A DNA stretch of 64,000 bases from Parcubacteria group bacterium (lineage in GTDB: Bacteria > Patescibacteriota > Minisyncoccia > Moranbacterales > UBA11712). The position numbers were made by a program, and so were the translations under genes. The notes below the pieces were generated by a model. That model was not told the origin of the DNA. It was given only the letters and a program-made list of their open reading frames with translations, and did no database searches. Shown piece after piece: positions 37,146 through 63,628 of the stretch (position 1 is its first letter; each line of letters starts with the position of its first letter). The stretch spans positions 178,771-242,770 of the forward strand of contig JBAZXV010000001.1 in the NCBI GenBank assembly GCA_041659685.1. Direction: 5' to 3'.

Positions 37146-37245
37146 TAAATTAAAAATTATTCATGAAGCTCCCAAGTTTGCAAAGGGGAATATAAACTCT
37201 AATTTTTTAAAAATCCAAATTTCTGGGATTTTGAGAAAAACTCTG

Positions 37246-37821
37246 TCACCTTGAGACGACATTGACGCTTGTCGTTTCATAGACAACTTTTCTGGCTCCG
37301 TCGAAGAGACCCTTTACGTCAATTTTATAATTCTTGTGAAGATAGGTTAATTTTTTCGTGCTGCCGCTCTTGGATCGGATAGTCGTATCATCAGACACAT
37401 ATACTTCCACTGTCCCGTGGCTCGATGTGCTTATCTTGATTATTTTTTTGGTCTTATCAATCTTTCTTATTTTTCCCCTTAGCGGATCTTCCAGCTTCCA
37501 AATAGAAAGATTGGTTACGCTGTCAGCCGATATGTCTTTGGAATTGTCTTTTTCTCCCCTTACATCGATATGGTCATTCTTTTTCATTTCATCGAGACTG
37601 GCTTTTTTCCCGTCATACCGGAAGAAATTAGCATCCGAAGTGTCAATATAATATTTTTTTCCGTTCAGTTTGGCTGTGATTGTGTCACCGGATACTTTGG
37701 TTATTTTAGCGTTCTCAAGCACCAAATCGCTTGACGCTTTAGCTGGCAAGATTGAAAAGAGTAAGGCAAGGGAGAAAAGAACAACTTTAACGGCAGTTTT
37801 CATTTTTAATGTTTTTTCCAT
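37246..37821 (-). CDS. secreted protein with two DUF5666-like repeats
   Basis: Signal peptide and two repeats of the pattern seen in 36669-37145 and 41068-41565. Confidence 0.5.
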   Translation of the reverse strand: MEKTLKMKTAVKVVLFSLALLFSILPAKASSDLVLENAKITKVSGDTITAKLNGKKYYIDTSDANFFRYDGKKASLDEMKKNDHIDVRGEKDNSKDISADSVTNLSIWKLEDPLRGKIRKIDKTKKIIKISTSSHGTVEVYVSDDTTIRSKSGSTKKLTYLHKNYKIDVKGLFDGARKVVYETTSVNVVSR

Positions 37822-37858
37822 TTTAGTTTTACTTTATTGATATATATTAAATTATTGC

Positions 37859-39073: not shown

Positions 39074-39130
39074 TTCTTCCTGCCCAGTTAAATGCCTCCG
39101 ACAAAGTCAAGGCAATTTCGCAAGGTGAAA

Positions 39131-39814
39131 CTATTTAACGGATTGAATGTCGCTTTCAATGAGGCCGTCACGGACAGAAATTATCCGGTCTGCGAAATCA
39201 GCCACCTCCATTTCGTGCGTAATAAGAACAATAGTATGGCCATTTTTGTTGAGTTTTTTGAAAGTATCCATGACTTTATGGCTGGTTTTTGTATCGAGAT
39301 TGCCTGTCGGTTCATCAGCCAAAATAATCGAGGGATTGTTTATAAGAGCCCGCGCAATAGCCACTCTTTGCATCTGCCCGCCGGAAAGCTGATTAGAGAG
39401 ATTAAAAAATTTTCCCTCCTCGAGTCCTGTTTGCTCCAATGCTTTTCTGGCTCTCTTCTCCCGTTCTTTATATGGCGTGCCCGTATAAAGCAGCGGCATC
39501 ATTACATTCCGAAGCACTGTTGTCCTGGGAAGAAGATTAAATGCCTGAAAAACGAAACCTATTTTATTTCGGCGCAGATCAGATAATTCATTATCCGAAA
39601 GCATGGAAACTTCTTTTCCGTCCAAAAAATATTCTCCGCTTGTCGGAGTGTCCAATGCCCCCAGCAAGTGCATAAGAGTGGATTTTCCGCTCCCGGAAGG
39701 TCCGATTATGGAAACAAATTCACCTTCCTTTATCCTGAATGAAACTTCCTTAAGAGCGGTTGTTTCCACATCGCCGTTAATATAAACCTTTTTAAGATTT
39801 TTACATTCTATCAT
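39131..39814 (-). CDS. ABC transporter ATP-binding protein (MacB/LolD-type)
   Basis: Walker A GPSGSGKST, signature LSGGQMQR and Walker B ILADEPTGNLD. Confidence 0.9.
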   Translation of the reverse strand: MIECKNLKKVYINGDVETTALKEVSFRIKEGEFVSIIGPSGSGKSTLMHLLGALDTPTSGEYFLDGKEVSMLSDNELSDLRRNKIGFVFQAFNLLPRTTVLRNVMMPLLYTGTPYKEREKRARKALEQTGLEEGKFFNLSNQLSGGQMQRVAIARALINNPSIILADEPTGNLDTKTSHKVMDTFKKLNKNGHTIVLITHEMEVADFADRIISVRDGLIESDIQSVK

Positions 39815-39845
39815 AGTTTATGTTGAGCTTTTCGGAACGCAATAT

Positions 39846-41066
39846 TTAACGGCCGCCGCCGCCCAATCCGGGAATCCTAAGGGATGACGATCCTCCCCCT
39901 GCCCCGCTTGAAGAACTTGCGCTTGTCGCATTCAGGTTGATGGTTTGGGTGACAACTTTATCTCCCTCATTAATCCCGTTTGCAATTTCCGTGTCTGTTC
40001 CGTTTGAAATGCCGATTTCAACGTTTTTCCGCACCGGAGTCTGGCCGTCATTTAAGACTTCCACATATGTTAATCCGCCCTGGCTTTTTACAGCGCTTGC
40101 CGGCGTTATTAAAACATTTTGCTTGACGTCGGTGATTATAGAGGCTGAAACGCTCATTTCCGGCTTAATTCTTGAATCCAGTGAATCAATATTAATCGTG
40201 ACGTTATAAGTCACAACACCTTGATCGATAGTGCCCAGAGAGTCTATTTTTTCAACTGCTCCCGTTGTCTGAAGCCCGTCGACAGCGTCAAAACTTAGCG
40301 AAACTTTTTGCCCTTGAGACACATTCGCCACATCCACTTCGTTAACTTGCACTTGGGCTTTCATCGTTCCAAGATCACCGATGATAATCGGCGCCTGTGA
40401 AGTACTGCTTGAAGAGAGCCGGCTGAGATCATCACCGTTCTTTATGTTTACGGCGTTAACAGTTCCGTCGATCGTGGCCGTTACCTTTCTTTTGCCAGCC
40501 TCGGTCAGAGTGTTGCTGTAATCCGCCTGGGTGGCGGCGAGATTTTTTTCCGCCTGGGTGACTTTATCTTCAGCCGTATCAATCTTGTCCTTCATTACTT
40601 TCAATTGTTTGTCAGTGTAAGTCCCCGGAGTCTTTTCTTCTTTCTTTTTGTTGGCATTATAGTCGGCTTTAGCTGACTTCACATCCACTTTTGCTGATTC
40701 AACGGCGTCTTTGGATTGTTTTAGCGAGGCATTCGCTTTCGCAACGCTAACCGTCAAATCACCGTTGACAATATTAAAAAGAAATTGGCCTTTTTTCACT
40801 TGGTCCCCCACAGCCACCGCCAAATCGGCCACCGTCCCTGTGATTGTCGGATCGACTGTGGCGCTTTGGTCCACTATAATATTTCCGCTTGCAGAGATAG
40901 AGGAAGTAAGAGTACCTTTTTCGACAGCCTGAGTGGTATACTGCGCCTGGGTGGTCGTCGTTTTTGATTTTTTGTACCAGTAATAGCTTCCCCCGGCTAT
41001 TAACAGCACTATCGCAATCCAAACATACTTCCTCTTTTTTCCAAGCATGGAGTGTATTTTTGCCAT
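39846..41066 (-). CDS. HlyD/MacA-like periplasmic adaptor (membrane fusion) protein
   Basis: N-terminal TM helix, a biotinyl-lipoyl-like segment (GTVADLAVAVGDQVKKGQFLF), a coiled-coil hairpin and beta-barrel domains. Start taken at MAKIHSML (41066). Confidence 0.75.
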   Translation of the reverse strand: MAKIHSMLGKKRKYVWIAIVLLIAGGSYYWYKKSKTTTTQAQYTTQAVEKGTLTSSISASGNIIVDQSATVDPTITGTVADLAVAVGDQVKKGQFLFNIVNGDLTVSVAKANASLKQSKDAVESAKVDVKSAKADYNANKKKEEKTPGTYTDKQLKVMKDKIDTAEDKVTQAEKNLAATQADYSNTLTEAGKRKVTATIDGTVNAVNIKNGDDLSRLSSSSTSQAPIIIGDLGTMKAQVQVNEVDVANVSQGQKVSLSFDAVDGLQTTGAVEKIDSLGTIDQGVVTYNVTINIDSLDSRIKPEMSVSASIITDVKQNVLITPASAVKSQGGLTYVEVLNDGQTPVRKNVEIGISNGTDTEIANGINEGDKVVTQTINLNATSASSSSGAGGGSSSLRIPGLGGGGR

Positions 41067-41067
41067 A

Positions 41068-41565
41068 TTAATTGTTTTCACTGCCGCTAAAAACTCGGAC
41101 CAGATCAGCATTCACCACGCCATTGTCTCCCGGGCTTCCCATAACTACGATTCGGTCATCCTTTTTAAGGTCGCCGATTTTAATGTCATCGCTTTGCCGC
41201 TTGATAATAGTTTTGTCCGTCACCGCAACAGTGTTTTCTTTTCCGTCTCTGTCCCTGACGATTATATTATTGTCTGAAATTGAAATAACTGCTCCGGCAA
41301 GCCCATGAGCATTTCTAAAATCCCGACTCTCCGGATCAAATGGCAGGCCGGGCCTCGCCTGCGGTCCCGGCGGAAAATCAGGCCTGATCCGGTGGGAACC
41401 GACAAAGTTTCGCTCGTAATTTTCGCCGAACTTATAGGAAAACCTGGCTTTTTTAAGACCAACCGCCACACCGCCGGCAAAACTGGCAAGGATTACCAAA
41501 AATACCCCTATAGCCAGAGCGGCCACTTTGATCATTTTTGATTTTGTCGCTTCTTGCGTATCCAT
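41068..41565 (-). CDS. membrane-anchored DUF5666-like protein
   Basis: TM helix plus ISISDNNIIVRDRDGKENTVAVTDKTIIKRQSDDIKIGDLKKDDRIVVMGSPGDNGVVNADLVRVF. Confidence 0.5.
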   Translation of the reverse strand: MDTQEATKSKMIKVAALAIGVFLVILASFAGGVAVGLKKARFSYKFGENYERNFVGSHRIRPDFPPGPQARPGLPFDPESRDFRNAHGLAGAVISISDNNIIVRDRDGKENTVAVTDKTIIKRQSDDIKIGDLKKDDRIVVMGSPGDNGVVNADLVRVFSGSENN

Positions 41566-47815: not shown

Positions 47816-48874
47816 TTAATTATTTTCACCGGATTCCCCATATTGCTTTTCATAATATTTCATATATTCCCCGCTTTTAATTTTCCGCCACCAAGACTCG
47901 TTGGCTTTATACCATTCGACAGTTTTTTTCATTCCTTCGTCAAAATTTGTCCGCGGCTCCCATCCGAGTTCGTTTTTAATTTTCGTAAAATCAATCGCAT
48001 ATCTTCTGTCATGGCCGGGCCGGTCCTTTACGTATTCTATCATTTCCTCTCCCTTTCCGAGAAGATCCAGAATTTTTTTGGTAATTTCGATATTTGGCTT
48101 TTCCGAGTCGCCTCCGACACAATAGGTTTCTCCGATCTTCCCTTTGTGGATGATCAGGTCGATCGCCTCGCAATGATCCTCAACGAAAAGCCAGTCGCGA
48201 ACTTGCATCCCATCGCCATAGACAGGAAGCTTTTTTCCCTCAATCACATTCGTAATAAAAAGCCCGTGGAGTTTTTCGGGAAACTGGAATGGGCCGTAGT
48301 TATTCGAGCAATTGGAAATTGTGACTGGCAGGTTGTGGGTATGAAAATAGGCCATCACAAGATGATCAGCGGCAGCTTTTGAAGCGGAATAAGGGCTCCG
48401 CGGCGCAAAAGGGGTTTTTTCGTTGAAAAGCGGGTCATTCGGTCCCAAATGGCCGAAAACTTCGTCCGTCGAAACGTGATGAAATCTCTTCGGGCCGTTT
48501 GCTTTCGCGGCTTCCAGAAGATTATGCGTCCCGACGATATTGGTGCGGATAAACGCCGCGCTGTCGAGAATAGAGCGGTCTACGTGTGATTCCGCGGCAA
48601 AGTTAACAATAACATCAATGTCCTTAGCAAGATCATTAACCAAATCTTTATCCGCGATATCGCCTTTTACGAACTTATAATTCGGATTATTTTCGATATC
48701 TTTAAGATTTTCGAGATTTCCCGCGTAGGTTAAAAGATCAAGATTTACAATCTTGTAATCCGGATAATTCTTGAGCATGTAGCGGACAAAATTGGAACCG
48801 ATGAATCCGGCGCCGCCGGTGACAAGAAGTGAGAGTTGGGATTTGTGAGTTGGGATTTGTGAGTTATTTTTCAT
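47816..48874 (-). CDS. rfbB: dTDP-glucose 4,6-dehydratase (with unusual 15-aa N-terminal leader)
   Basis: VTGGAGFIGSNF, YSASKAAADHL and ISNCSNNYGPFQFPEK motifs. Confidence 0.9.
   Translation of the reverse strand: MKNNSQIPTHKSQLSLLVTGGAGFIGSNFVRYMLKNYPDYKIVNLDLLTYAGNLENLKDIENNPNYKFVKGDIADKDLVNDLAKDIDVIVNFAAESHVDRSILDSAAFIRTNIVGTHNLLEAAKANGPKRFHHVSTDEVFGHLGPNDPLFNEKTPFAPRSPYSASKAAADHLVMAYFHTHNLPVTISNCSNNYGPFQFPEKLHGLFITNVIEGKKLPVYGDGMQVRDWLFVEDHCEAIDLIIHKGKIGETYCVGGDSEKPNIEITKKILDLLGKGEEMIEYVKDRPGHDRRYAIDFTKIKNELGWEPRTNFDEGMKKTVEWYKANESWWRKIKSGEYMKYYEKQYGESGENN
48833..48865. repeat. 14-nt tandem repeat x2.4 at rfbB/4HB junction
   Basis: gttgggatttgtga occurs at 48835-48848 and 48849-48862, plus partial units. 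It encodes part of the rfbB N-terminal leader (SQIPTHKSQLS). Confidence 0.8.
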
Positions 48875-49217
48875 TATATTTGATTAATCCGCTTAGCATT
48901 TTCGCAATTTCTTCGCTTTGTTTATATAATTTATTGTAATCTTCTTTCGAAATATAACCTTGCATTAATGCTAAATCTAATAAACTAACGACTTCATACA
49001 ATGATCCCTTAGCGATATTGAATAAATTTCTGCTTTCTTTATTACTAATTCTGCCACTCGCTTCAGCTATATTAGCAATTACTGAAATTGCAGCTCTTAT
49101 AATTTGACTAATTAACGAAAATTTCAAATGTGGTGGAAACTTTTCTGATATTTTGAAAATTTCGCCATTAAACACTAAGGCTTTTTTGTAAACGTCCAGT
49201 CTCTCGAATTTATACAT
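48864..49217 (-). CDS. four-helix-bundle protein (23S rRNA intervening-sequence protein family)
   Basis: FERLDVYKKA ... IIRAAISVIANIAEASGR ... AKGSLYEV ... pattern typical of TIGR02436-type proteins. It is AT-rich and overlaps the rfbB start by 11 nt. Confidence 0.75.
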   Translation of the reverse strand: MYKFERLDVYKKALVFNGEIFKISEKFPPHLKFSLISQIIRAAISVIANIAEASGRISNKESRNLFNIAKGSLYEVVSLLDLALMQGYISKEDYNKLYKQSEEIAKMLSGLIKYNEK

Positions 49218-52710: not shown

Positions 52711-54000
52711 CTAGCAAACAGACCGAAAAATGTCAATTATATCGCGATTATATTTTTCTGGGTTGAATTTTTCAGCCGGAAACTCAAAATTCGGCTTATT
52801 TCCCGATGCATATGCCATTATTTTGTCCTTAAATTCCTTTTGATTATTCGCCAGATAACCGTTTTGGCCATTTTCTATTATTTCGTCGTATCCTCCGGTT
52901 TTATAACCGACAAAGGGCTTTCCTGCGCTGATCGCTTCAAGTGCAATCAGTCCAAAAGTTTCCGGAAGCCGTGAAGCGGAAACAACGAAAACCGATTCCT
53001 GAATCAATTTATTTAACTCGATATTATTTTTAAAACCGGCATATTCCGTATTTGCGCAAAGCGGAATGTCGAAGCCGCTCTCTTTACTGCCTGCTAGAAC
53101 TAATTTTATCGGCATATCCCTGAAAATCTCGGTCAACTCATCGATATTTTTTTCTTTAGAGATGCGGCCGAAATAGAGAGCGAATTTTTCCCCGCCCGCG
53201 GCTGGCGCGGAATGCGCATTCCGGATATTCGCGAAATGAGGCAGAACTTTAATTTTGCCTTCGGAAAAGCCCGCCTGGACAAGAATATTTCTTACAAACC
53301 GGCTCGGAGCGATGAACAAATCGACATTTTTTTCATAAATGCCGAGCCAACGATGAAAATAAATTCCTAAAACGCTTATTAAGCTTTTAAGATAAGAATT
53401 TTTCACGCATTTTTTCGGAACGCAGTGCCAGTATTTTCCAGCGACGCACTTTTCGCAATAAGGCTTTTCGTCCGCCTTTGCAGAAAAATATTGTTTTTCT
53501 GCGGATTTTTCAGACCCTGAAATTATGTTCTGCTCCGGCGAATGTTCGCCGCAACGGTTCTTTTGCGGTTTATCCCCTGCAACTTCGCAGTTTAAAAGAT
53601 AATTCGGACAAATTAGCTTCCAGTCATGGACAGTCATAACAATCGGAATTCCTCGTTTTTTTATTTCAGGAAGAATTGAGGGGGAAATTTGATGGTAAAT
53701 ATTATGAATATGGACGACATCCGGCCGAAATTCATCCAGAATTTTTGCAATTTTTCGCCTGGCTTCAAATGACCAAAAAATGCGGAGTCCGCCTTTGATT
53801 TTATTTATCGCGCCGCCGTTTTCATAGTCCACCCGGCTGACAAAATGATTTGAAAAATCCGAATGCAGATTTTTCGGATGGCTCATTGAAAAAACAGCGG
53901 CTTCATTTCCGTTTGAATTCAGCAGCTTCACGAGATCGACAAAATGCTTGTCGGCTCCGCCTCGGACATGGTTGAATTTATTGATTTCAAGGATTTTCAT
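52711..54000 (-). CDS. glycosyltransferase family 4 with Cys-rich insert
   Basis: Start MKILEINKF (54000) overlaps the upstream stop (ATGA). It has a C-terminal ETFGLIALEAISAGKPFVG motif and a CEKCVAGKYWHCVPKKC insert. Confidence 0.75.
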   Translation of the reverse strand: MKILEINKFNHVRGGADKHFVDLVKLLNSNGNEAAVFSMSHPKNLHSDFSNHFVSRVDYENGGAINKIKGGLRIFWSFEARRKIAKILDEFRPDVVHIHNIYHQISPSILPEIKKRGIPIVMTVHDWKLICPNYLLNCEVAGDKPQKNRCGEHSPEQNIISGSEKSAEKQYFSAKADEKPYCEKCVAGKYWHCVPKKCVKNSYLKSLISVLGIYFHRWLGIYEKNVDLFIAPSRFVRNILVQAGFSEGKIKVLPHFANIRNAHSAPAAGGEKFALYFGRISKEKNIDELTEIFRDMPIKLVLAGSKESGFDIPLCANTEYAGFKNNIELNKLIQESVFVVSASRLPETFGLIALEAISAGKPFVGYKTGGYDEIIENGQNGYLANNQKEFKDKIMAYASGNKPNFEFPAEKFNPEKYNRDIIDIFRSVC

Positions 54001-55523
54001 TTGTTTTCTTTTGTGTGAATATTTTTGTTTATTTCTTCCGGATAGCCTCCCAGAACAGCCAGTCCTCCAAGGATAATCCAAAAGAATACTGCCAGAAGAT
54101 TCGTTTCAAGATAGGTTTGAAATAAAAAGGCGATCAGATAATTTATAAACAATACTACAAAAACCACTTGAAAAAATTTTATCTCAGCGTTTCCCGCCGG
54201 CCCTTTTCTAGGCTTTCTGATATTGGAATAGAGCGGCCTGAATATTGAATAAAATATCGCGGTTATGAGGGCAATGCTCCAAATTCCCATTTGGATAAAC
54301 ATCGTGAGAAGGGAATTATGGATATTTCGCACTTCAATAAAATCTTTGTATTTCAGCCCAATCTCAACGGAAACCATTTTTCCGTAGCCCAATCCAAAAA
54401 TCAGCGAATGCTGAAAGTCCGTCCAGGCCGCCTCCCAAACGGATTTGCGCCAATTGAGGCTTTCATCGGAACTGACTTGCGCCGTGGAAACAAATCTTTG
54501 TCCGGCCACTCCGGCCGCTCCCCTGAAAACTTTGGAAACTCCGGATTGGGGGAAGATAAAGGATATGTAGGCGGCCAGAATAAACAGCACGGCCCCGAAA
54601 AAAGCGTAATGAAGAAGCATGGTCTTTAAGGTCTTGCTGTTTTTTTGAGGAAGAAGATAAAAAAGAAATAAGACGGAAATAAAAAGGCTTATCCAAAGAT
54701 GGCGCATGAGAGACCCGATAATGCCCGCGGTCCAGATTGGAATAAGGGCATATAAAAATTTATTGACTTTTGATTTTTTAAAACTCAGCCAGACAAAAGA
54801 GGCCAGCAAAGCCATTGAGAAATAAAAAGCGTGCGGAAAAGCCAAAATTCTTGTCCCCGGAGTGGAAAGAGGGGTAAATTCCGTCCAAAGGCCTTCGCCG
54901 CGGATAATCCCTATGAAAATGAAAATGGATGCGGCGGATGCGGCGGCCAAAAAAAACTTAAGGAGCTGAAAAATTTTTTCTCTTTCACTGAACAGGAAAA
55001 TAAAGGCAAAATAGAAAAGTCCGTAGAAAGAATAATTCTTGAATGTGCTGAAAGCGATGGCTTCGTCGGCGTGAAGAAAAAAAGCGCTCGCGAGAAAATA
55101 AACCGCGCTCGCGAGAATGAAGATTGCAATCAAATAGTCAACAATTTTCAGTTTCCTCGGCAAGCCGTTTTTTATGATCTGATAAATCGTTCCCAGCATC
55201 ACGCCGGCAAACAGGATGTCAATGGGGTATATTTTATATTCCGTCCGGTTCCAATATATCGGAACCAAAGTGAAAAATCTTTCGAAAATCACGGTCAGAA
55301 AAACAATGGCATAAAATCCGCTTCTTGGAAAAACAATCGAAAGCGCAAAACCGGCAGCCATTGCAAAAAAATAGATCGGGAAATTGAACCCGGCAACAAA
55401 ATTAGCCAGAATAAAAAGCGAAACCGCCGCAATAATGAAAACAGCGGTGGAGGTTTCTATGAATTCGCTTTTAGCGATTTTGACTGAAATAGTTCGCATA
55501 ATGTTGGGTATATTTTTTCGCAA
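53997..55523 (-). CDS. O-antigen ligase/polymerase-like (Wzy/WaaL family) polytopic membrane protein
   Basis: About 12 hydrophobic helices and a large loop with GLGYG and HNSLL motifs typical of the Wzy_C domain. Confidence 0.7.
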   Translation of the reverse strand: MRKNIPNIMRTISVKIAKSEFIETSTAVFIIAAVSLFILANFVAGFNFPIYFFAMAAGFALSIVFPRSGFYAIVFLTVIFERFFTLVPIYWNRTEYKIYPIDILFAGVMLGTIYQIIKNGLPRKLKIVDYLIAIFILASAVYFLASAFFLHADEAIAFSTFKNYSFYGLFYFAFIFLFSEREKIFQLLKFFLAAASAASIFIFIGIIRGEGLWTEFTPLSTPGTRILAFPHAFYFSMALLASFVWLSFKKSKVNKFLYALIPIWTAGIIGSLMRHLWISLFISVLFLFYLLPQKNSKTLKTMLLHYAFFGAVLFILAAYISFIFPQSGVSKVFRGAAGVAGQRFVSTAQVSSDESLNWRKSVWEAAWTDFQHSLIFGLGYGKMVSVEIGLKYKDFIEVRNIHNSLLTMFIQMGIWSIALITAIFYSIFRPLYSNIRKPRKGPAGNAEIKFFQVVFVVLFINYLIAFLFQTYLETNLLAVFFWIILGGLAVLGGYPEEINKNIHTKENK

Positions 55524-55630
55524 TTGATAATTTTCAGAATTTTATGGAAACAAGCGGTGCTTTTTATTTCCATGAAACTCTGCCTCTCCCGCGGCATTGC
55601 TGCAGGAGAGGAGGCCTAAGGTACATTGGG

Positions 55631-56083
55631 TTATTTGCGCTTACGCCCGAATGGATCAGGCGTGACTTTCCAGGCGGTGACGAAGAACTCCTGGGCAGCA
55701 TAATCCCCTGTGACGGGACTGATGACGCCAACCTGGATCTTGGCCCATTTCACGGCACCGAAATCAAACTTGAGGATGTAGGTGTTGCCACCCGCATACT
55801 CAACCTTGCCGTCTTTCCAGTCGCCGTCGATATTATAGCGGGCGACCACGAAATCCCAATGGACCCGACGATCAAACTCGATCGCCATGCGGTAGCAAGT
55901 AATCCCGGAAACTGGCCCTGGTTCATTGTCTGGCCAGAGACCCTTCACAGTCCCCATAATTTGCCATCTGGGCATATCGTCCACGTATCTCACCCAGCTA
56001 AAGTCGGCCGCTTGACTACAGACTGCCCCGGCCAGCAAGAGAGCAAACCACACAAACAAGCAGACTATGCATTTTTTAAACAT
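55631..56083 (-). CDS. secreted hypothetical protein (150 aa), GC-rich island
   Basis: Signal peptide MFKKCIVCLFVWFALLLAGAVCSQA with predicted cleavage before ADFSW. No motif recognised. Confidence 0.55.
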   Translation of the reverse strand: MFKKCIVCLFVWFALLLAGAVCSQAADFSWVRYVDDMPRWQIMGTVKGLWPDNEPGPVSGITCYRMAIEFDRRVHWDFVVARYNIDGDWKDGKVEYAGGNTYILKFDFGAVKWAKIQVGVISPVTGDYAAQEFFVTAWKVTPDPFGRKRK

Positions 56084-56101
56084 AACTCACAACCTCGCAG
56101 T

Positions 56102-56614
56102 TTATTGAATTTCAATATTGATGTTGCCGCCGCCGTTTTCCATGGTGACAGCTATGCCATACATCCCAAAGGCCAAGTCTGAGTTGGTTCCCCAGTATTT
56201 CATGACCTTTTCAGGCCAAAAGGAGAAGAGAAACATTCTCTCGACATCCAGAGCATCGTTGACATTCGCTCCCCGAGCAGATGCCACATAAACAAGAGAT
56301 GTTTTGATGAGGTCTTTAGCCGCCTTTTGATCCGGTGGCATCGAGGCAAAGAGGGACTTTATTTTCTTCCCCGTTTCATCCGCGGTCATAATGACCGTGA
56401 TCCTGCCGCCAATGGTCATTTTCTGAAAAGACCGCGATTCCGAATACCAGTGTCCGCTGGTGAATTCGAAACCCTGCTCTAAAAAGGATCCGGTCGCCAG
56501 AATCGCCGAATGGGTCAAGCTGCCGACTTTTTCTTCACTGGCATTGGAAATATTCGCCAGGCAGAAAGTCGCGATGAGGACCATAATAGAAATTAAAAGA
56601 GCCGATTTTTTCAT
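56102..56614 (-). CDS. secreted hypothetical protein (170 aa), GC-rich island
   Basis: Signal peptide MKKSALLISIMVLIATFCLANISNA. No motif recognised. Confidence 0.55.
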   Translation of the reverse strand: MKKSALLISIMVLIATFCLANISNASEEKVGSLTHSAILATGSFLEQGFEFTSGHWYSESRSFQKMTIGGRITVIMTADETGKKIKSLFASMPPDQKAAKDLIKTSLVYVASARGANVNDALDVERMFLFSFWPEKVMKYWGTNSDLAFGMYGIAVTMENGGGNINIEIQ

Positions 56615-56841
56615 GGTTTACCTCTTCATTTAGAATATTCGGGAAAGATAGGCTTATCTCCCGAAAGATGCGCTTAAGGAAGCGAATTTTTCGAAAGATT
56701 AACTTTGTCCTCCTTTGCAGAACGCTATAAACGTAAACCCGCGAGTAGATGATAATGTTCTGCTTCGGCAGATTTCGCTCCGCCGAAGAATTAGAGAATG
56801 ACTTAGGAGCCAGTTCGCGGAGCTTCATTTTTTAACTCAAT

Positions 56842-56870
56842 ATAATATCATTTCGCCGCAAATTTGTCAA
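56842..56870 (-). promoter_or_regulatory. candidate promoter for 56102/55631 operon
   Basis: On the minus strand, TTGACA (56870-56865), a 17-nt spacer and TATTAT (56847-56842). This implies a ~220-nt leader. A divergent TTGTCA-17-TATAAG lies on the plus strand (56864-56892). Confidence 0.4.
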
Positions 56871-56983
56871 GTATTATTTTAGCTTATATAAGGCATTATT
56901 TTCTAATTTAGCATATATTTAATAAATTATCTATAATCTATCTCATGGATTTGCTTTAAGCAATAGGATCTTTCTCCAAAAAC

Positions 56984-57011
56984 TTGCCATTCCTGGGCGT
57001 ATGGTTATAAT
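56984..57011 (+). promoter_or_regulatory. candidate proximal promoter for the L,D-transpeptidase gene
   Basis: TTGCCA (56984-56989), a 16-nt spacer and TATAAT (57006-57011). A GGAGG SD lies 8 nt before the ATG at 57043. Confidence 0.4.
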
Positions 57012-57042
57012 GGGATATTAAAAAACAAAAGGAGGGCGAGGG

Positions 57043-57510
57043 ATGAAAAAATTTCATCTTTTGGTTTTTTTTCTTGTTCTTTTCAGCGCTTCCGCTCTCC
57101 GCTCCGAAACATCGGAAGAATTTTGGAGAGGGAAAGTAATTTTCGTCAACCAGTTGACCCAGGAGCTGATTACCTATCAGGACGGCAAAGAATTGCGCCG
57201 ATTCGATGTGATTATGGGAGACGCAAAATTCAAGACTCCGCAAGGAATTTACCGCGTGCAACACAAGGACCGGAAATATTGGTCCAATCAATACAGCACC
57301 TGGATGCCCAATTCTCTTTTTTTCATCTGGGACGAAAAAACCCGGATGGCCATCCACGCCGGTATTGTTCCGCTGAACAAGGAAATTACCCGCCAAAAAG
57401 CCACCCATGGATGCGTGCACGCGAGAAACAATGATGCGGAGTGGCTGTTCGACTGGGCGGAAGAAAAAGCAACCAAAATCATAATCTACGGGGATCGTTC
57501 CCAAGACTGA
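57043..57510 (+). CDS. L,D-transpeptidase (YkuD domain), secreted
   Basis: Signal peptide. The YkuD catalytic region reads IHAGIVPLNKEITRQKATHGCVHARN (H ... HGC motif). Confidence 0.8.
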   Translation: MKKFHLLVFFLVLFSASALRSETSEEFWRGKVIFVNQLTQELITYQDGKELRRFDVIMGDAKFKTPQGIYRVQHKDRKYWSNQYSTWMPNSLFFIWDEKTRMAIHAGIVPLNKEITRQKATHGCVHARNNDAEWLFDWAEEKATKIIIYGDRSQD

Positions 57511-57547
57511 CAGTCCTGATGTTGCATCAGGACTGTTTCATTTTTTC
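57511..57547 (+). terminator. rho-independent terminator of the L,D-transpeptidase gene
   Basis: An 11-bp stem CAGTCCTGATG/CATCAGGACTG with loop TTG, followed by a T-rich run. Confidence 0.7.
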
Positions 57548-57565
57548 TCCTATTTTAATTTGTAT

Positions 57566-57695
57566 CAGTAAACTAGTTTACTGGTTTGAAAAACCTAGAC
57601 ATCCGATGTCTTTTGACTTATGAATATTTATTCAGAAACTTTTTATAAGAAATAATTATTTTCGGTATCCTCAAGCGTTTGGACATCCAATGTCC
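57566..57695. repeat. cluster of palindromes: an 18-bp perfect palindrome plus two related 15-bp inverted repeats
   Basis: CAGTAAACTAGTTTACTG (57566-57583), AGACATCCGATGTCT (57597-57611) and GGACATCCAATGTCC (57681-57695). Confidence 0.7.
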
Positions 57696-57721
57696 AAAAT
57701 AGACAATTTTTCCAAATTAAA

Positions 57722-57755
57722 GAGCCGTATCAGTACTGACACGGCTCAATTTTTT
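57722..57755. terminator. hairpin terminator downstream of 57819 gene (bidirectional-looking)
   Basis: GAGCCGT-N12-ACGGCTC with T-rich flanks on both strands. Confidence 0.55.
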
Positions 57756-57818
57756 CTTTGCCCCCTTTGTTACCTCCTTATGGGGGCGGTTATTTCGTGG
57801 CCGGGGTCCGGCCGGGGA

Positions 57819-58301
57819 TTACTTAACGTTCAGCGACGGTGGCCAGGGGTTGCCGTTGGGATCTAGTCCCCGGTCCTTGTCGGCATAGAGACCACCCTCC
57901 AGTTTGTAGACATATTGACCAGAGTTGACTGCGCCCAGGGATTCTACCGGAATCAACAGCCAGTATTTCCCGTGCTTAAACTGGATGCCGGTGTAAGAAC
58001 CCATATCAACCTTTTCGCCAGTCTTGACACTCCGGTTGGGCCCAAACAAGACCACCTCGGAGGGCTGCCAGCCTTGAGAATTCTTCACCGCGAAAGAAAT
58101 ACTGTTGCCTTCCTTGACGGCCGTAAATACGGTGCCCGCGGGCGGCAGAAACGTTTTGGACTTCGCGGTGTCAACCACGATTTTGACGTTACCTTGGGCC
58201 AAAGCCGTGGTCGTCATAAAGAACATGGAGGCGCAGAGCAGGACGCTCATGAAAACTCCGATACCCAAAATCTGCCACTCGGTTTTCCTTAATTTATTCA
58301 T
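57819..58301 (-). CDS. secreted hypothetical protein (160 aa), GC-rich island
   Basis: ATG at 58301 follows a GAGAGGAG SD. Signal/TM segment WQILGIGVFMSVLLCASMFFMTTTALA. The track start at 58448 overlaps the upstream gene. Confidence 0.55.
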   Translation of the reverse strand: MNKLRKTEWQILGIGVFMSVLLCASMFFMTTTALAQGNVKIVVDTAKSKTFLPPAGTVFTAVKEGNSISFAVKNSQGWQPSEVVLFGPNRSVKTGEKVDMGSYTGIQFKHGKYWLLIPVESLGAVNSGQYVYKLEGGLYADKDRGLDPNGNPWPPSLNVK

Positions 58302-58395
58302 TACCGATCTCCTCTCAGTGTATTCCCCGCTAATGCAGGGAAGTTGTGTTCCGCGCCATTGGTTTTCACCTTTAGCGCGGAACGGGTTCATTGGG

Positions 58396-60963
58396 TCAGT
58401 CCTGATCAGGTCCCGCTTGTCTGACATCCTTTTTTTCAGGAACCGCAACAGGATTCTGTGGCTTTTCCAGAAACTGGGGCGGAGCGGACGACTCTGCCTT
58501 GGGTGTTTCCGGAGTTATTGGTTGTTCCGGCTTAACTTCTGCCGGAGTTTGAGGCGGCATAGCAGGCGGTTCCGCCGGCTTGGCCTCTGGTTTTTCCGGA
58601 ATTGATGGAATAATTATTTTTCCGTCCGGAACCTCAGGCAGAACAGGCTGTTCCACCTTGGGCGCATCCGGAACCGGCGTCGGAGCCTGGGCAGGTTGCT
58701 CAGGCTTGTCCGGAGTGATTGGTTGCTCCGGCTTGGTTTCTTGCGGAGCCGGGATTGGTAGCGCCGGAACCTTGATCGGCGTTTCCGGCTTGACTGCCGG
58801 ACACCGCTCCCTCAACTTCTTTTTACGTTTCGGCGGTTTTTTTACTTTTACCGGCGGAGCTTTTTCAACTGCGGGAGGACAGATAATTTTCGGCTCAGCC
58901 GGAATTATCGGTGCTGGAGGTAAAACCGCAGGAACAATCGGCTCAATTTCCGGCGTGTCCCAAGGAACTTCTTTGGTCCCGCATTCCACCATCGCGCCCT
59001 GGATGGTCCAAAATACGCGATAAAAATCGACAGAATCCAGATAGTAGTTTCTTTTCCCAAAATATCGGCCGTAGGAGAGGTATACTCCCCCAACTTCGAC
59101 CTGCACTTTGCCTCCGCCGCCCTTGGGGCCATGGCGGAAACGCAGAAAGGCCGGGCCCGCCGATATTTTGAACAGGTCATCGCACGGCGATTGATACAGG
59201 ACCGGCATAATACCGGCATGGAAAAACCCGTCCGTCTCCCAGAGCAGGAAGGCCTTCGCTCCCGGGAGCAGCTTGCCATATTTTCCGCTCTTCACCGGCT
59301 TCCACCAAAATTCCGTGGCGGCGTCAACCGTTGCATAGCGGCGGGACATCCGATAGTTAAAATCCCCTTTTTCCCAGCGTCGGCCCGCAAGAAGGCCAAT
59401 CGTCGTATCCGTCCCGCCCCAATCATGGCGGGTGATAATCTCCGGCCAAATGCCGAATGAACGGCTACAGCCTGATCCGGAGAATTCGGACGGGTGAACT
59501 TGATACTCATACCACCCGAACTTTGCCGCAGGTCCGACTCCCAAAAATACGTTGGGCGCCAATTCTGCTTCGAACGGCCGCAAAGCGATATTATGCCATG
59601 CAAACCGTCCCGAGAGATTCGGCTCACGGCTGATTCCACCTCCAATCGGTATTTCTACCCGTTTCGGATCGACCCACCAACGAATGCGCTGAGGAAGATC
59701 GATGTAGTCATTGAAGGTTTGACCTTGGCCTTTGACATCGGCAACAAACTGCCGATAGGGAATCTCACCGCCGATGTTGGCATTGTTTTCCCGGACATAC
59801 GACTGTCCATAACTTTTTTCGCTCTTCGCCGGGTTTGGATAGGCGCCGACTTTTTCATCTTTCCGGAAGGATTGCCAGAAAGCAAAATCCTTCTCGAAAA
59901 GCTCTACGCCATTTGTCTCGGTAGAGAGGCAAGGCGTGTTGTGATTGCGCAGAACGGTGGATGTAAATAATGCTGATCCAGCGCTCATTGCCATCCCAAT
60001 CGGCTCAGGACTGATTGTCAGCCCCCCATCATCGGCAAAGCGAACATAGCCACGGCGCCGGTCGGGTTTTTTGCAGGCCTCGACTAATTCGCCACGATCT
60101 GCCGCATAGCGGATCCCGTCCATCGGGACATAATACTTATTAAGGCCGGCAGCCCGAATAACTCCATCGAGCTGGCCTTTGTTGATGAGGCTCGTTCTCT
60201 GGAGACTATCAAGGCTCGTGCCATAGGTCTCGGCAACCAGAGCCATATACTCAGGATCTTTTTCTTCATACATTCCGCCCTGAAGTTTGGCATACTTGGT
60301 GCCTTCCAACCCCCAAACAACCAACTCACCACGTTTGTCTCCGCCAATGGCATTGTTGAAAAAACGGTCGCCACTGACAATTTTCCAATCGGAGGCAGAA
60401 CCAGTGAGTTCGGAGTTGAAATAGACTACGACCGGAAGCTTGCCATTCTTGTCGCTGCCGGACGGCAGAATAAAACCGTCCTCAATCCGACCAGAGCCGG
60501 AATTGACGGCCACCGCCTTCATGGTCTTTCCCTTAGCAAATTTAAGCGCAGGTGTGGGGATAAAACCTCTCACGGCAGTGACTTTTTTGGAGTCTTGCGG
60601 AGGTTTTTTGGTTGACCATGAATCACGAGGGGTGCAGAAGGGGGATTTCCATAATTTCCCATCTTCCCTATCCCCGTTCTCCGGGTTTTCCCACTTGTTG
60701 GGTTTGCGGGCCGTGTAAAACTGCCCGCTCTCCTGGTTCAGCCTTTCCTGGTAGATTTGGCCGTCACGAGAATTCTTCCACTCGCGGACCACACCGGGAT
60801 CGGCTTTTTCGGCGGAAGCGGCTTCTGAAACCTCTCCTCCGCTGCCGGAGCACTTATACCATCCCGGTTCGGAACCGGGAATTGGGTCTGCAGCTTTTGC
60901 TTGGCCGCTGGCAAAAACCAGCGAAAGGCCGAGCAGAGCAGCGATAAAAGACTTTCTGACCAT
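58396..60963 (-). CDS. large secreted protein (855 aa) with Pro-rich C-terminal tail, GC-rich island
   Basis: Signal peptide MVRKSFIAALLGLSLVFASGQAKA, a beta-strand-rich central region and a C-terminal ~170-aa Pro-rich region with KPEQPITP twice. Confidence 0.65.
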   Translation of the reverse strand: MVRKSFIAALLGLSLVFASGQAKAADPIPGSEPGWYKCSGSGGEVSEAASAEKADPGVVREWKNSRDGQIYQERLNQESGQFYTARKPNKWENPENGDREDGKLWKSPFCTPRDSWSTKKPPQDSKKVTAVRGFIPTPALKFAKGKTMKAVAVNSGSGRIEDGFILPSGSDKNGKLPVVVYFNSELTGSASDWKIVSGDRFFNNAIGGDKRGELVVWGLEGTKYAKLQGGMYEEKDPEYMALVAETYGTSLDSLQRTSLINKGQLDGVIRAAGLNKYYVPMDGIRYAADRGELVEACKKPDRRRGYVRFADDGGLTISPEPIGMAMSAGSALFTSTVLRNHNTPCLSTETNGVELFEKDFAFWQSFRKDEKVGAYPNPAKSEKSYGQSYVRENNANIGGEIPYRQFVADVKGQGQTFNDYIDLPQRIRWWVDPKRVEIPIGGGISREPNLSGRFAWHNIALRPFEAELAPNVFLGVGPAAKFGWYEYQVHPSEFSGSGCSRSFGIWPEIITRHDWGGTDTTIGLLAGRRWEKGDFNYRMSRRYATVDAATEFWWKPVKSGKYGKLLPGAKAFLLWETDGFFHAGIMPVLYQSPCDDLFKISAGPAFLRFRHGPKGGGGKVQVEVGGVYLSYGRYFGKRNYYLDSVDFYRVFWTIQGAMVECGTKEVPWDTPEIEPIVPAVLPPAPIIPAEPKIICPPAVEKAPPVKVKKPPKRKKKLRERCPAVKPETPIKVPALPIPAPQETKPEQPITPDKPEQPAQAPTPVPDAPKVEQPVLPEVPDGKIIIPSIPEKPEAKPAEPPAMPPQTPAEVKPEQPITPETPKAESSAPPQFLEKPQNPVAVPEKKDVRQAGPDQD

Positions 60964-61037
60964 GGTCTTACACTCCTTTGCCTCGCTTCCCTTTCGTTTC
61001 TTCCTAAGCCAGACTCGGCGCGAATTTTTTTCATTTA

Positions 61038-61102
61038 ACCCGGGGAACTTAACCCGGACATTAAACGAAGAAAATTCAGTTTTTATGACCCGGGGAACTT
61101 AA
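61038..61102. repeat. 15-nt direct repeat x2 upstream of the 855-aa gene
   Basis: ACCCGGGGAACTTAA at 61038-61052 and 61088-61102, 50 nt apart. Confidence 0.75.
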
Positions 61103-61330
61103 TCACCCAGAATGAAACACCATAAGAACTTTGCTTTTGTCTTGCTTTTGGAAAATCCGGAGGAGTCGCAAGAAATTTTTGTGGGACAGCCGCCAGGCGG
61201 CTGCCATATATTGACTTTATACTGACAAAGTTGTAAATGAGCTGGCCCTCGTTTTCAAGGGTTGAGTGTCCCAAAGCCGCGGCTTTGAAAAACTCAGCCT
61301 CCGAAAAGATGGTTTTCAAGCCATCACGTT

Positions 61331-61371
61331 AAAGGCAAAAGTGGAATTCGCAGCTAAACCGCAAATTCCAC
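61331..61371 (-). terminator. terminator of the Wzz-like gene
   Basis: 8-bp stem GTGGAATT/AATTCCAC (61341-61371) followed by TTTTGCCTTT on the minus strand. Confidence 0.55.
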
Positions 61372-61411
61372 CTGCCTTTCAGTGTGTTGCTCTTAAGGTT
61401 CAACTTGAAAT

Positions 61412-62146
61412 TTACGTTTCTTTGAAATTGACTATCTCTCCCGTTTCTACGTCGATAATGTTTCCGGAATCGTCTTTCGTTATCGTTCTTCCCCAAATGC
61501 CGTTTATATCTTTTCCGCTGCCCGCTAGTTTCCCCTGACTAACAAGGCCTGCATAAAATGAAATTGCAAATATAAGGAAAAGTCCCACAAGAAATGATGC
61601 GCCGACCGAAAACGCCAGCATTGCGGCTCCCGGATTATTCTTTATCACCGGCGCGTTAATCATCCGCACTTCAATTTTTTGGTTTTCGCTGATAAAAAGA
61701 TTATTATTGTCCGCCAAAACTCCGGCCACTGTTTTTGAGATATTTTCTGCGTTCGTTCGATCACTCGCCAAGACCCTGAGGTGACTCATCCCCAGCTCCA
61801 TATTAAGCGATGTCCGAACCGTTTTTGCCCAGGATTTCATCCTGCTCTCCCGATCAATGGGCAAAATTTTAGAAAGTTCCGGATAACCTTCCGCAGCCTT
61901 ATTAAGAAAAGTTTCCGTGTAGATGCTTTCCGAAAGAAGCTTCGAAAAATGTTCGGTCGACTTCGCCAGAGTATAGGAATCAACGAATCCTTCCTGGTTT
62001 TGAATGACCAGCACGTCCAAATTGGACTGATATTTGGGAGTAAAAAGCATCATCCCCCAAAAAGTCACGGCCGCAAAAAGAAGGCCTGCCAATATCATGA
62101 TTCCTGATTTTTGCCTTAAAATAGCGGCAATTTGAGAATAATTCAT
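61412..62146 (-). CDS. Wzz-like polysaccharide chain-length determinant (2-TM PCP)
   Basis: TM1 (IMILAGLLFAAVTFWGMMLF), a ~150-aa extracytoplasmic domain and TM2 (AMLAFSVGASFLVGLFLIFAISFYAGLV). Confidence 0.6.
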   Translation of the reverse strand: MNYSQIAAILRQKSGIMILAGLLFAAVTFWGMMLFTPKYQSNLDVLVIQNQEGFVDSYTLAKSTEHFSKLLSESIYTETFLNKAAEGYPELSKILPIDRESRMKSWAKTVRTSLNMELGMSHLRVLASDRTNAENISKTVAGVLADNNNLFISENQKIEVRMINAPVIKNNPGAAMLAFSVGASFLVGLFLIFAISFYAGLVSQGKLAGSGKDINGIWGRTITKDDSGNIIDVETGEIVNFKET

Positions 62147-62221: not shown

Positions 62222-63628
62222 TTAAAAACTCAAGACTTTATCCCCTGTCAGCTTTTCATTCAATTCTCCTGTTGTCCCGTCGGTTTTTTGCATCTTAGCC
62301 GTGAAATCAATCTCTCCGGATCCGGACTGCTTCTGAACCAGCAGACTGTATGCCTTATTTTTCAGATCGGCCGGCAGGTTATACTCCAAAGTTACTGATT
62401 CCGTCTTCCCAATTTGAACATTTACGGGAAATCCAAAAACCTTTTTCCCCAGCTCATCGCTAAACCTCATTTCTTGCCCGGGAATACTCGACGTTTCAAG
62501 CCATGATCCTGCCGGAACGTAAACTCTCGCCCAATCATTGTAATTGGTGGTCATCCAGTCCTTGGCGCGGCAAGTGTGTTCATAAGTCAAAGTTAATTTT
62601 GCCTTCGGGTTTTCACCATTCATGTCAACGCTGTATTCAGCTTTTCTCTTGATACAGATATCGCTTTTCAGAGAATTAAGATTGGCGTCGACAACCATCA
62701 GATAGTCTCCGCTGTAATCCCGCACCTTTCCCGTCCAGTTCATATTTTCCGCCTCCGCCTCAAGGCTTTCGTCCTTAAAATACATCTGGATGTCTTTTTG
62801 CTTGAGGTGTTCTTCCATTTTTTTCCCGAGTTCCAACTGCTGGGAAAGCGTGAAATTATGGGCTTTTTCAATGAGAACCTCGGCCATTTCTTTCATGACG
62901 CTTTTTCTCTCTCCTTTGTCGATTCCCTGATCGCGATAGCCTTTTTCCACCTGGTATTCGAGCTGGAGAATGGCCGTTTCGTCGTTGTACTCCCCCGGAT
63001 AATCGTTGATTTTGACCGGCCCGGTTATCGAAAGGAAAGAATTAAGCACATTTGTGTTAACGGCAACGACCCCGTCAAAATTTTCTCCGCCCTGCCCGAG
63101 TTTATAGAAATATTCCGCTTTTTCGGCATTGGTCTTGAAATCAGGCGACCAGTTTGAATCGCGCAATTTCCAGGATTTAATATAGAGCATTTCCCCCATC
63201 GGATAAGGAGGGGTTTCCGTTTCAGGAATCCGCCCGTCGAAATTTCCCGTGTCGTGGATTTGAATATCGCTCACTTTTCCGTTTTTCGTCTTAAGAATTC
63301 CGAAAGACCCGATAAATCCGCCTCCGGGACGAAGTTCCATGTCATTTTGGAAAAGGATGAGAAAAGTTTGCTCGCGATTGAATCCGCCGGCTTTTTGATA
63401 TATGTCCGTCAAAACCTGAAGTTCGTTTCTGCGCTCGGATCCCACCGGCAAAATTTTCGCCAGCGGTTTTAGGTTTTCAATATTCCGGTTTTTCACCTGG
63501 AGAAACACATACCATCCGAAAAGCAGAACGACCGAAGCCAGCCAAAAAATCAGCCAAAACTTCCACGTGTTCTTCTTAATTTTCTTTTTTCCTTCTTTTT
63601 CAGGCAAAATTTCAGCCTTTTTTTCCAT
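62222..63628 (-). CDS. DUF4012 domain protein (membrane-anchored)
   Basis: N-terminal TM helix and an ELRPGGGFIGSFG motif, which I recall as the DUF4012 signature. It is adjacent to the Wzz-like gene. Confidence 0.65.
   Translation of the reverse strand: MEKKAEILPEKEGKKKIKKNTWKFWLIFWLASVVLLFGWYVFLQVKNRNIENLKPLAKILPVGSERRNELQVLTDIYQKAGGFNREQTFLILFQNDMELRPGGGFIGSFGILKTKNGKVSDIQIHDTGNFDGRIPETETPPYPMGEMLYIKSWKLRDSNWSPDFKTNAEKAEYFYKLGQGGENFDGVVAVNTNVLNSFLSITGPVKINDYPGEYNDETAILQLEYQVEKGYRDQGIDKGERKSVMKEMAEVLIEKAHNFTLSQQLELGKKMEEHLKQKDIQMYFKDESLEAEAENMNWTGKVRDYSGDYLMVVDANLNSLKSDICIKRKAEYSVDMNGENPKAKLTLTYEHTCRAKDWMTTNYNDWARVYVPAGSWLETSSIPGQEMRFSDELGKKVFGFPVNVQIGKTESVTLEYNLPADLKNKAYSLLVQKQSGSGEIDFTAKMQKTDGTTGELNEKLTGDKVLSF

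Follow-up and report, generated by a model that had tools for sequence, protein, structure and literature searches.

Genes for exposed surface proteins such as S-layer proteins and flagellins are known to combine conserved ends with a variable body, and in these genes, as in porin genes and serotype cassettes, the central part is exchanged and the gene tree disagrees with that of the flanks. Serotype-type cassettes sit within surface-glycan loci, and the capsule and O-antigen regions among them are usually AT-rich and encode enzymes. Among described barrel proteins, those closest to the locus presented here are the type Va autotransporters (BrkA 3qq2, Hbp 3aeh, AIDA-I 4mee, NalP 1uyo, and EspP), which have a 12-stranded barrel; the Wzp porins of Myxococcus (WzpX/S/B), which are 18-stranded, PgaA-like, paired with OPX in diderms, and encoded beside a chain-length-determinant-like gene in a Wzy-type locus (PMC9603273); and beta-barrel proteins of Brucella and Agrobacterium, which L,D-transpeptidases attach to peptidoglycan at an N-terminal Ala-Asp according to the account in PMC10787603 that cites Godessart et al. 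2021. Here we analyzed a 64,000-nucleotide (nt) stretch of contig JBAZXV010000001.1 (hereafter the window) from a Parcubacteria group bacterium of the Candidate Phyla Radiation (CPR). At 55524-61331, within an envelope glycan locus, it carries a cassette for an 855-amino-acid (aa) secreted protein, which we call BIG, three small secreted proteins (sm160, sm170, and sm150), and an L,D-transpeptidase of the YkuD family (Table 1). The cassette belongs to a known kind, the recombining variable surface-protein cassette; what is new is its main protein family, which is uncharacterised, restricted to CPR, and confidently predicted to contain an outer-membrane-type barrel. Like the variable genes above, BIG has conserved ends, a swapped middle, and a history in conflict with that of its flanks, and like serotype cassettes it resides in a surface-glycan locus; in contrast to capsule and O-antigen cassettes, however, it is GC-rich and encodes secreted structural proteins that lack known S-layer or anchoring domains.

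The position of the cassette, between a gene for a Wzz-like protein and one for a Wzy_C protein, proved to be shared by its relatives. The closest relatives of BIG were found in Candidatus Moraniibacteriota metagenome-assembled genomes (MAGs), and the loci compared came from JGI samples 3300013122, 3300037810, and 3300075153, the Logan assembly of SRR11050432, and the GenBank MAGs JAUXSN01 and JAZDKQ01 (four loci were obtained by a genome scan, while a metagenome scan returned only a duplicate of the locus L001). In all six relatives, the genes are ordered DUF4012, Wzz-like (212-244 aa), BIG (757-778 aa), small partner (121-132 aa), YkuD, zero or one small protein, Wzy_C, and GT4, followed by TIG, a second GT4, a ~275-aa protein, RmlC, an epimerase, and RmlD. 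The YkuD gene was present in five of the six, each time at the same place and in the same orientation, on the strand opposite to BIG.

This synteny contradicts the preliminary description of the region, which had read it as a horizontally acquired module inserted into a glycan locus and splitting it, with an assembly chimera as the trivial alternative. A recently acquired foreign island of secreted proteins, lodged between the Wzy-like and Wzz-like genes of a once contiguous locus, would fit the GC content 7 points above the rest of the window, the few or no relatives of three of the four secreted-protein open reading frames (ORFs), the hairpins at both edges, and the tetranucleotide z-scores of the leftmost chunks, whose correlations with the rest of the window are the lowest found (0.27-0.28). 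Yet the slot, expected to be empty in relatives, holds the same genes in every one of them, between flanks that are 62-88% identical at the protein level (computed among the five loci for which DNA was available); the orthologues share the GC excess, which is mostly a matter of amino-acid composition; and conservation across BIG types extends to the leader and the first ~95 codons of the gene. Nor was a distinct tetranucleotide signature found, as the GC-richest part (57-61.5 kb) correlated at 0.46-0.48, within the 0.27-0.66 of the other 3-kb chunks. The lowest values are common to the left part of the island and the adjoining chunk outside it (52.5-55.5 kb), so there is no signature boundary. 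No tRNA gene was detected at the island edges (those of the window are only at 11.5-11.7 kb), no flanking repeats were detected in a repeat search, and none of the five genes matched an integrase or other mobility family in Pfam. Because the slot is conserved in relatives and the tetranucleotide profile lies within range, two outcomes that the preliminary description had itself named as refuting, we consider the foreign island refuted, with very little probability left to it. The same two observations make a chimera, in which a GC-richer fragment of another organism was joined into the contig, very unlikely. The compositional steps at ~57.7 kb and ~61.0 kb might have suggested such a join, but they fall on gene boundaries instead of arbitrary points, and independent assemblies of different samples, made with different assemblers, show the same gene order and the same GC step, leaving a chimera barely conceivable. 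A conserved slot with recombining secreted-protein content, neither foreign island nor chimera, is therefore the likely reading, and the idea of horizontal transfer survives only as recombinational exchange of slot content among related lineages.

The rise in GC content is itself real and exceeds chance, but it is smaller than first described and patchy rather than uniform. The island averages 49.6% GC versus 42.7% for the rest of the window, where 500-nt intervals have a mean of 42.8% (standard deviation 3.6%, maximum 52.6%). All 31 consecutive intervals starting at 57701-60701 exceed 50%, as do three at 55501-55701, compared with just nine in the other 58 kb. The rise is limited to 55.6-56.05 kb and 57.7-61.0 kb, and the island includes a trough of 33-36% at 56.65-57.1 kb. 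Three 60-nt counts made earlier by hand were reproduced exactly (43/60, 31/60, and 22/60), whereas the flanking genes, previously given as 30-37% GC, came to 41-45% upon recomputation. With the codon usage of 39 other genes in the window as reference, amino-acid composition accounts for +7.6 and synonymous choice for +2.5 of the 10-point excess of BIG; the corresponding components were +3.2 and +5.8 for sm160, and +4.9 and +4.8 for sm150. BIG contains 10-14% Gly, has a Pro-rich tail, and is rich in Ala, Arg, and Trp, and about three quarters of its GC excess comes from this Gly/Pro/Ala/Arg-rich composition, not from a foreign signature. Among the relatives, BIG has 55.7-57.1% GC (L001, L003, and L004, the last at 55.7%) versus 41-48% for flanking genes, the partner gene reaches 57.9-59.4% in L001 and L003, and the GC content at third codon positions (GC3) is 0.61-0.80 in BIG and partner versus ~0.45-0.55 in the flanks. 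These genes are stably GC-rich in all the relatives for which DNA could be read. Translational selection was considered for the high GC3 and rejected: the ribosomal-protein, S2, and EF-Ts genes of the window reach just 0.41-0.49, and thus the synonymous component is not a generic high-expression bias. This component, which is larger in relatives, might stem from GC-biased gene conversion in a recombination hotspot. Separately, the partner genes of L001 (12411-12797) and L003 (12437-12826) combine GC3 values of 0.75-0.80 with genomes of ~45% GC, a synonymous bias far stronger than that of sm160 (GC3 0.67).

The content of the slot evolves far faster than its flanks, as comparison of the aligned loci shows. 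Three types of BIG can be told apart, A (the window and L004, 75% identical), B (L001), and C (L003 and L006/7, 87% identical), with only 30-39% identity between types. These relationships conflict with those of the flanks: the DUF4012 and Wzz-like proteins of L004, which shares its BIG type with the window, are 80-86% identical to those of L001, L003, and L006 versus 69-73% to those of the window. Profiles of DNA identity in 200-column bins place the breaks. Over the first ~240 nt of BIG, the window, L004, and L003 share 75-86% identity (64-67% in the proximal leader), and the protein alignment extends this conserved stretch to about residue 95; near codon 95, at ~60.72 kb, identity between the window and L003 falls from 78% to 42% in adjacent bins, while between the window and L004 it holds at 67-81% as far as ~58.9 kb. 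Around a basic motif in the tail (58.7-58.9 kb), all pairs have 50-56% identity, and from this motif across the partner gene the identity of L001 and L003 is 58-71% (39% in one bin) despite BIG bodies at 25-36%. Partner types X (window), Y (L004 and L007), and Z (L001 and L003) are distributed independently of BIG type, and the YkuD protein of L004 is an outlier (45-50% identity, versus 70-86% among the other loci). Taken together, these alignments show that the BIG body and the neighboring small genes were exchanged by recombination between conserved anchors. The mosaic pattern is that expected of an exposed surface component under diversifying selection.

The slot is best explained as an ancestral, fixed feature of the envelope glycan locus (DUF4012, Wzz-like, slot, Wzy_C, GT4, TIG, GT4, rml) in a Moranbacteria/Parcubacteria lineage. 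It has transcription units of its own, namely leader-BIG-partner, the L,D-transpeptidase gene convergent with it, and up to two more genes for small secreted proteins. The part of BIG made up of N-domain and barrel has been swapped as a module between a 5' anchor, which consists of the leader, the signal peptide, and ~70 mature N-terminal residues, and a 3' anchor, the basic KKK..RCP motif, with partner genes reassorting independently of BIG. Mechanistically, BIG may be a major envelope protein exported by Sec, whose conserved ends serve export and anchoring and whose variable body is exposed, possibly to phages or to host or partner recognition as the source of diversifying pressure. The barrel would then be embedded in some outer layer. 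More speculatively, and by analogy, the YkuD enzyme could join the mature Ala-Asp/Glu N-terminus to peptidoglycan, and the Pro-rich basic tail could span or bind either the wall or the glycan that the flanking genes produce.

BIG had no match in Pfam, NCBIfam, or PDB sequences, including in profile searches to E <= 10, and a profile search of 1.84 billion cluster representatives recovered a family of just 12 members, several of them fragments. The protein is built of a signal peptide, a conserved N-module, a variable domain (residues ~96-435) that is poorly modelled, a Gly- and aromatic-rich beta region predicted to form a ~12-strand barrel, a conserved helix, and a Pro-rich tail with a basic motif. 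The predicted mature N-terminus is A-D-P-I-P-G. Across the seven aligned members, the N-module begins A-[D/E]-P-I-P-G...GWY.C, with A25, P29, and G30 invariant and D or E at position 26, always after an AxA-like site; cleavage there is deduced solely by the -3/-1 rule. The consensus of the basic motif is PPVK[VI]KK...KK.LR.RC (V705, K706, K708, K709, and K715 invariant), and the tail in the window is ~100 residues longer than in relatives. Two other modes of anchoring were rejected: a lipoprotein, as the conserved Cys at position 38 has no lipobox before it, and a sortase substrate, as an LPXTG motif is absent.

The AlphaFold model of whole BIG was poor (predicted local distance difference test, pLDDT, 40.5). 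The separate model of residues 439-646, in contrast, was confident, and closed sufficiently that it superposed on 12-stranded membrane barrels at 2.5-3 A over ~200 residues. The first 30 matches of the fold search were all outer-membrane barrels, with no soluble fold among them, and included Hbp (match figure 17.3), AIDA-I (16.9), the COG4313 channel (14.5), EstA (14.3), EspP (14.1), FapF (13.8), NalP (13.8), KdgM (13.1), and Intimin (11.8). Alternating hydrophobic positions were kept across types that are only ~20% identical. From these models, residues 439-646 probably adopt a ~12-strand outer-membrane-type fold. That the barrel is embedded in a membrane is a more doubtful proposal, and we put forward only tentatively, as an idea that may well prove wrong, that this CPR lineage makes a membrane-embedded ~12-strand barrel as a hypervariable major envelope component, possibly tied to peptidoglycan via Ala-Asp.

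The barrel fold is what BIG has in common with type Va autotransporters, and a type V-like secretion system, in which the barrel would move the N-domain (400 aa) or the Pro-rich tail to a diderm-like surface or a host membrane, would also be consistent with the signal peptide, the large extra domain, the ~12 strands, the adjacent helix, and the episymbiotic life inferred for CPR (10.1101/2024.03.08.584096). The resemblance does not extend further, however. BIG is 7-12% identical to type Va barrels, with no sequence similarity, and at E <= 10 none of seven BIG members matched an autotransporter family or any other family in Pfam, or an autotransporter chain in PDB. Moreover, its barrel is internal rather than C-terminal, with a helix after it and none before; it is followed by a 190-aa Pro-rich tail ending in ...GPDQD, with no terminal aromatic residue; the N-domain is not modelled as a beta-helix passenger; and the group is considered to lack an outer membrane and porins (10.1101/2021.05.31.446380). 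Inverse autotransporters of type Ve (intimin/invasin) differ from BIG in domain order, and BIG has no family-level match to their barrel sequence. We give a type V-like system only a slim chance.

The gene neighborhood raises another alternative, that BIG is the outer conduit, or porin, of the flanking Wzy/Wzz-type glycan pathway and hence an analogue of Wzp. BIG immediately follows the Wzz-like gene and precedes Wzy_C in every locus, and Wzp porins beside PCP/OPX genes provide a precedent (PMC9603273). But an export pore should co-evolve with its pathway, whereas BIG (30-39% identical, recombinationally swapped) is decoupled from pathway genes that are 62-88% identical, and it forms a separate transcription unit. 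No OPX was found among the scanned genes of the locus or in the Pfam tables of the relatives' contigs, and the barrel has ~12 strands rather than the 18 of the PgaA-like Wzp porins. These differences make a conduit improbable.

The alternative that deserves more weight, although we still judge it rather unlikely, is that BIG is an S-layer-type or other soluble surface protein of a monoderm cell, the barrel being an over-read beta-meander or a non-membrane lattice barrel. The Pro-rich basic tail would anchor it to wall or glycan, and the flanking glycosyltransferases and Wzy_C may glycosylate it. In published descriptions, CPR cells are monoderm and possess S-layers, rml genes, and numerous glycosyltransferases (PMC5220378; 10.1101/2024.05.28.596244; 10.1101/2021.05.31.446380). 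The long conserved leader, the strong ribosome-binding site, and the gene's own terminator fit an abundant structural protein, several predicted strands are polar, and the conserved ends and variable body are as in S-layer genes. Conversely, the confident model superposes on membrane barrels with no soluble fold in the top 30, no SLH, CWB2, or other known S-layer anchoring domain was detected in Pfam or NCBIfam, and GC3 is unlike that of ribosomal-protein genes, so very high expression finds no backing in codon usage.

The idea of a peptidoglycan tether arises from the adjacent enzyme. The YkuD protein has a signal peptide and the catalytic motif HGCVHAR, and its gene and BIG-sm160 are convergent. 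In most loci, this L,D-transpeptidase gene stands beside a BIG gene whose product has an invariant Ala-Asp/Glu at its predicted mature N-terminus, a combination reminiscent of the linked barrel proteins of Brucella and Agrobacterium. Unlike in Brucella, where the barrel is near the N-terminus, ~410 residues lie between the two in BIG. A tether of BIG to peptidoglycan by YkuD is a speculative resemblance to the Brucella-type linkage and not a result, and we regard it as improbable, if worth noting.

Several observations weigh against the combined picture of an ancestral slot encoding a membrane-embedded, wall-linked barrel protein. All relatives were found through BIG homology, which places cassette-less relatives outside the sample, and the slot is shown to be ancestral only within the BIG-carrying clade. 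The YkuD gene is missing from the cassette of one relative, and the residual synonymous GC excess, which is large in relatives (partner-gene GC3 up to 0.80), is not accounted for. The barrel was predicted from a shallow alignment of 10 sequences, several of its strands are rich in Arg and other polar residues, and it is internal (residues 439-646 of 855) with no terminal beta-signal. The N-terminal 400 residues were modelled poorly (pLDDT 20-65), and Foldseek returned no significant match for the whole model and none for the N-domain. In addition, CPR bacteria are regarded as monoderms that have lost porins (10.1101/2021.05.31.446380; PMC8871954), Parcubacteria are reported without lipopolysaccharide genes (PMC5220378), which makes the membrane that would hold the barrel, and the machinery that would assemble it, hard to name.

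The structure and origin of the CPR envelope are openly called unclear (PMC5220378; PMC8871954), and CPR bacteria figure in the debate on outer-membrane loss in Terrabacteria, so an outer-membrane-type barrel is unexpected in a group thought to be without an outer membrane. The locus offers a concrete candidate, i.e., a lineage-specific, secreted, and apparently barrel-containing protein beside an L,D-transpeptidase in a wall-glycan locus, and its mosaic pattern marks BIG as a probable exposed and selected face of the cell. Should the barrel prove real and membrane-embedded, either the strict picture of monoderm CPR would be challenged or a tool for host contact would be revealed; the options would be an unrecognised outer lipid or protein-lipid layer or diderm relic, a proteinaceous, barrel-based sheath like the toga of Thermotoga, or a barrel inserted into the host membrane. 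If the barrel is not real, the locus would still be a clean case of cassette-type antigenic variation in an uncultured episymbiont, and a warning that gene families may keep a raised GC content as a lasting trait, without any foreign origin.

Transcriptionally, the right part of the cassette region appears to consist of a DUF4012/Wzz-like unit with a terminator and a unit of leader, BIG, and sm160 with its own terminator, and the left part of the convergent YkuD gene with a terminator, sm170-sm150 with a hairpin, and Wzy_C with the genes after it (GT4, TIG, GT4, and rml). Both edge hairpins that had been proposed exist: the right one is strong and terminator-like and would end the upstream DUF4012/Wzz-like unit, while the left one is weaker and lacks a U tract. 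The leader of BIG holds two tandem hairpin/palindrome elements ~50 nt apart, in which TTAAGTTCCCCGGGT occurs twice (61023-61052 and 61073-61102; family D3 of the repeat search). The leader is partly conserved across BIG types (L003 9690-10000, L004 9660-9997, and L006 3750-4058), and both hairpins are kept with a different sequence (CCAGTG...CTGG in relatives, in place of the window's TTAAGTTCCCCGGGT). An Rfam search of 55-62.5 kb, leader included, returned no known RNA family; the leader could be a regulatory RNA or a paired operator.

Table 1. Features of the cassette and its immediate flanks, with positions in the window
Feature	Positions	Strand	Basis and remarks
DUF4012 protein, right flank	62222-63628	-	Pfam; with Wzz-like, 66-73% identical to relatives
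Wzz-like two-transmembrane protein, right flank	61412-62146	-	Pfam; with DUF4012, 66-73% identical to relatives
Terminator-like hairpin, right cassette edge	61339-61373	-	16-bp stem, U-rich tail, -30.7 kcal/mol, z = -7.8
BIG promoter/leader, 375 nt	60964-61338	-	Sequence reading; strong AAGGAG ribosome-binding site
BIG, 855-aa secreted protein (WC831_01225)	58396-60963	-	ORF; 53.8% GC
BIG signal peptide (aa 1-25) and conserved N-terminal module (aa 26-~95)	60679-60963	-	Alignment
Predicted beta-barrel of ~12 strands, aa 439-646 (helix aa 647-662 after)	59026-59649	-	Structure model
BIG Pro-rich tail, aa 666-855	58399-58968	-	Composition; 28% Pro
Conserved basic motif PPVKVKKPPKRKKKLRERCP, aa 703-722	58798-58857	-	Alignment
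sm160, small secreted partner (WC831_01220)	57819-58301	-	ORF; GC3 0.67
Terminator after BIG-sm160 unit	57722-57747	-	Folding z = -5.3
YkuD-family L,D-transpeptidase	57043-57510	+	Pfam PF03734, E = 1.5e-20
Terminator of YkuD gene	57509-57537	+	Folding analysis
sm170, small secreted protein	56102-56614	-	ORF; 47% GC
sm150, small GC-rich ORF, predicted signal peptide	55631-56083	-	ORF; 53% GC
Hairpin after sm150, left cassette edge	55575-55617	-	-24.6 kcal/mol, z = -2.8, no U tract
Wzy_C (O-antigen ligase/polymerase-like) membrane protein, left flank	53997-55523	-	Pfam; 63-72% identical to relatives

The four secreted-protein ORFs listed in the preliminary description exist as given there, and by inspection each starts with a basic n-region that leads through a hydrophobic stretch to an AxA-like site, which upholds its reading of a secreted or surface-protein module; long antisense ORFs were likewise confirmed in the region, and a fifth gene, that of YkuD, had been missed. 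Not all four are GC-rich, as sm170 has only 47% GC (Table 1). None matched a Pfam or NCBIfam profile, and the suggestion of an undescribed family was borne out by the 12 cluster representatives for BIG and by two small proteins with no relative at all. One of these, sm160, matched only itself among 5.8 billion proteins, although its slot is conserved: all relatives have a protein there, of three unrelated types, and the four read at the sequence level all carry a signal peptide. The other, sm150, also matched only itself in the protein search, with a weak 22% similarity to L001 13720-14196 (E = 0.026 for a single pairwise comparison). Its public annotation (WC831_01205) covers the last 85 of 150 codons from an internal Met start, which loses the signal peptide; the predicted mature N-terminus of the long form would likewise begin with Ala-Asp. 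The remaining small protein, sm170, is 42% identical to L004 13726-14235 and had no other relative in the loci compared.

A diversity-generating retroelement was also considered for the cassette and dropped, as its repeats are at most 37 nt long, with no long template/variable-region pair. No reverse transcriptase was matched among the scanned genes, and the sole Avd-like gene is one at 48.9 kb. This 117-aa ORF (48864-49217, minus strand; Pfam PF05635, E = 3.7e-34) lies between the RmlC and RmlB-like genes and encodes a 23S rRNA-intervening-sequence, or bAvd-like, four-helix-bundle protein. It has 28.5% GC and a GC3 of 0.25, and L001 and L004 have no gene at the equivalent site. The compositional insertion of the locus is this ORF, not the GC-rich region.

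Further along the window, 36669-41111 (minus strand) encodes an HlyD/YknX-like membrane-fusion protein, an ABC ATPase, and an FtsX permease, beside two small DUF5666 secreted proteins. Relatives have a comparable MacB-type set with two FtsX genes directly upstream of DUF4012. Since the genes in the window are just 27-55% identical to these copies, this part of the neighborhood has been rearranged in the window. Finally, the GT4 (52711-54081) and Wzy_C (53997-55523) ORFs on the minus strand overlap by 85 nt, and both begin at an upstream TTG. The products in relatives are shorter (390 aa for GT4 and ~490 aa for Wzy_C), so the true starts are probably the internal ATGs that begin MKILEINKF... 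and MRTISVK..., respectively.

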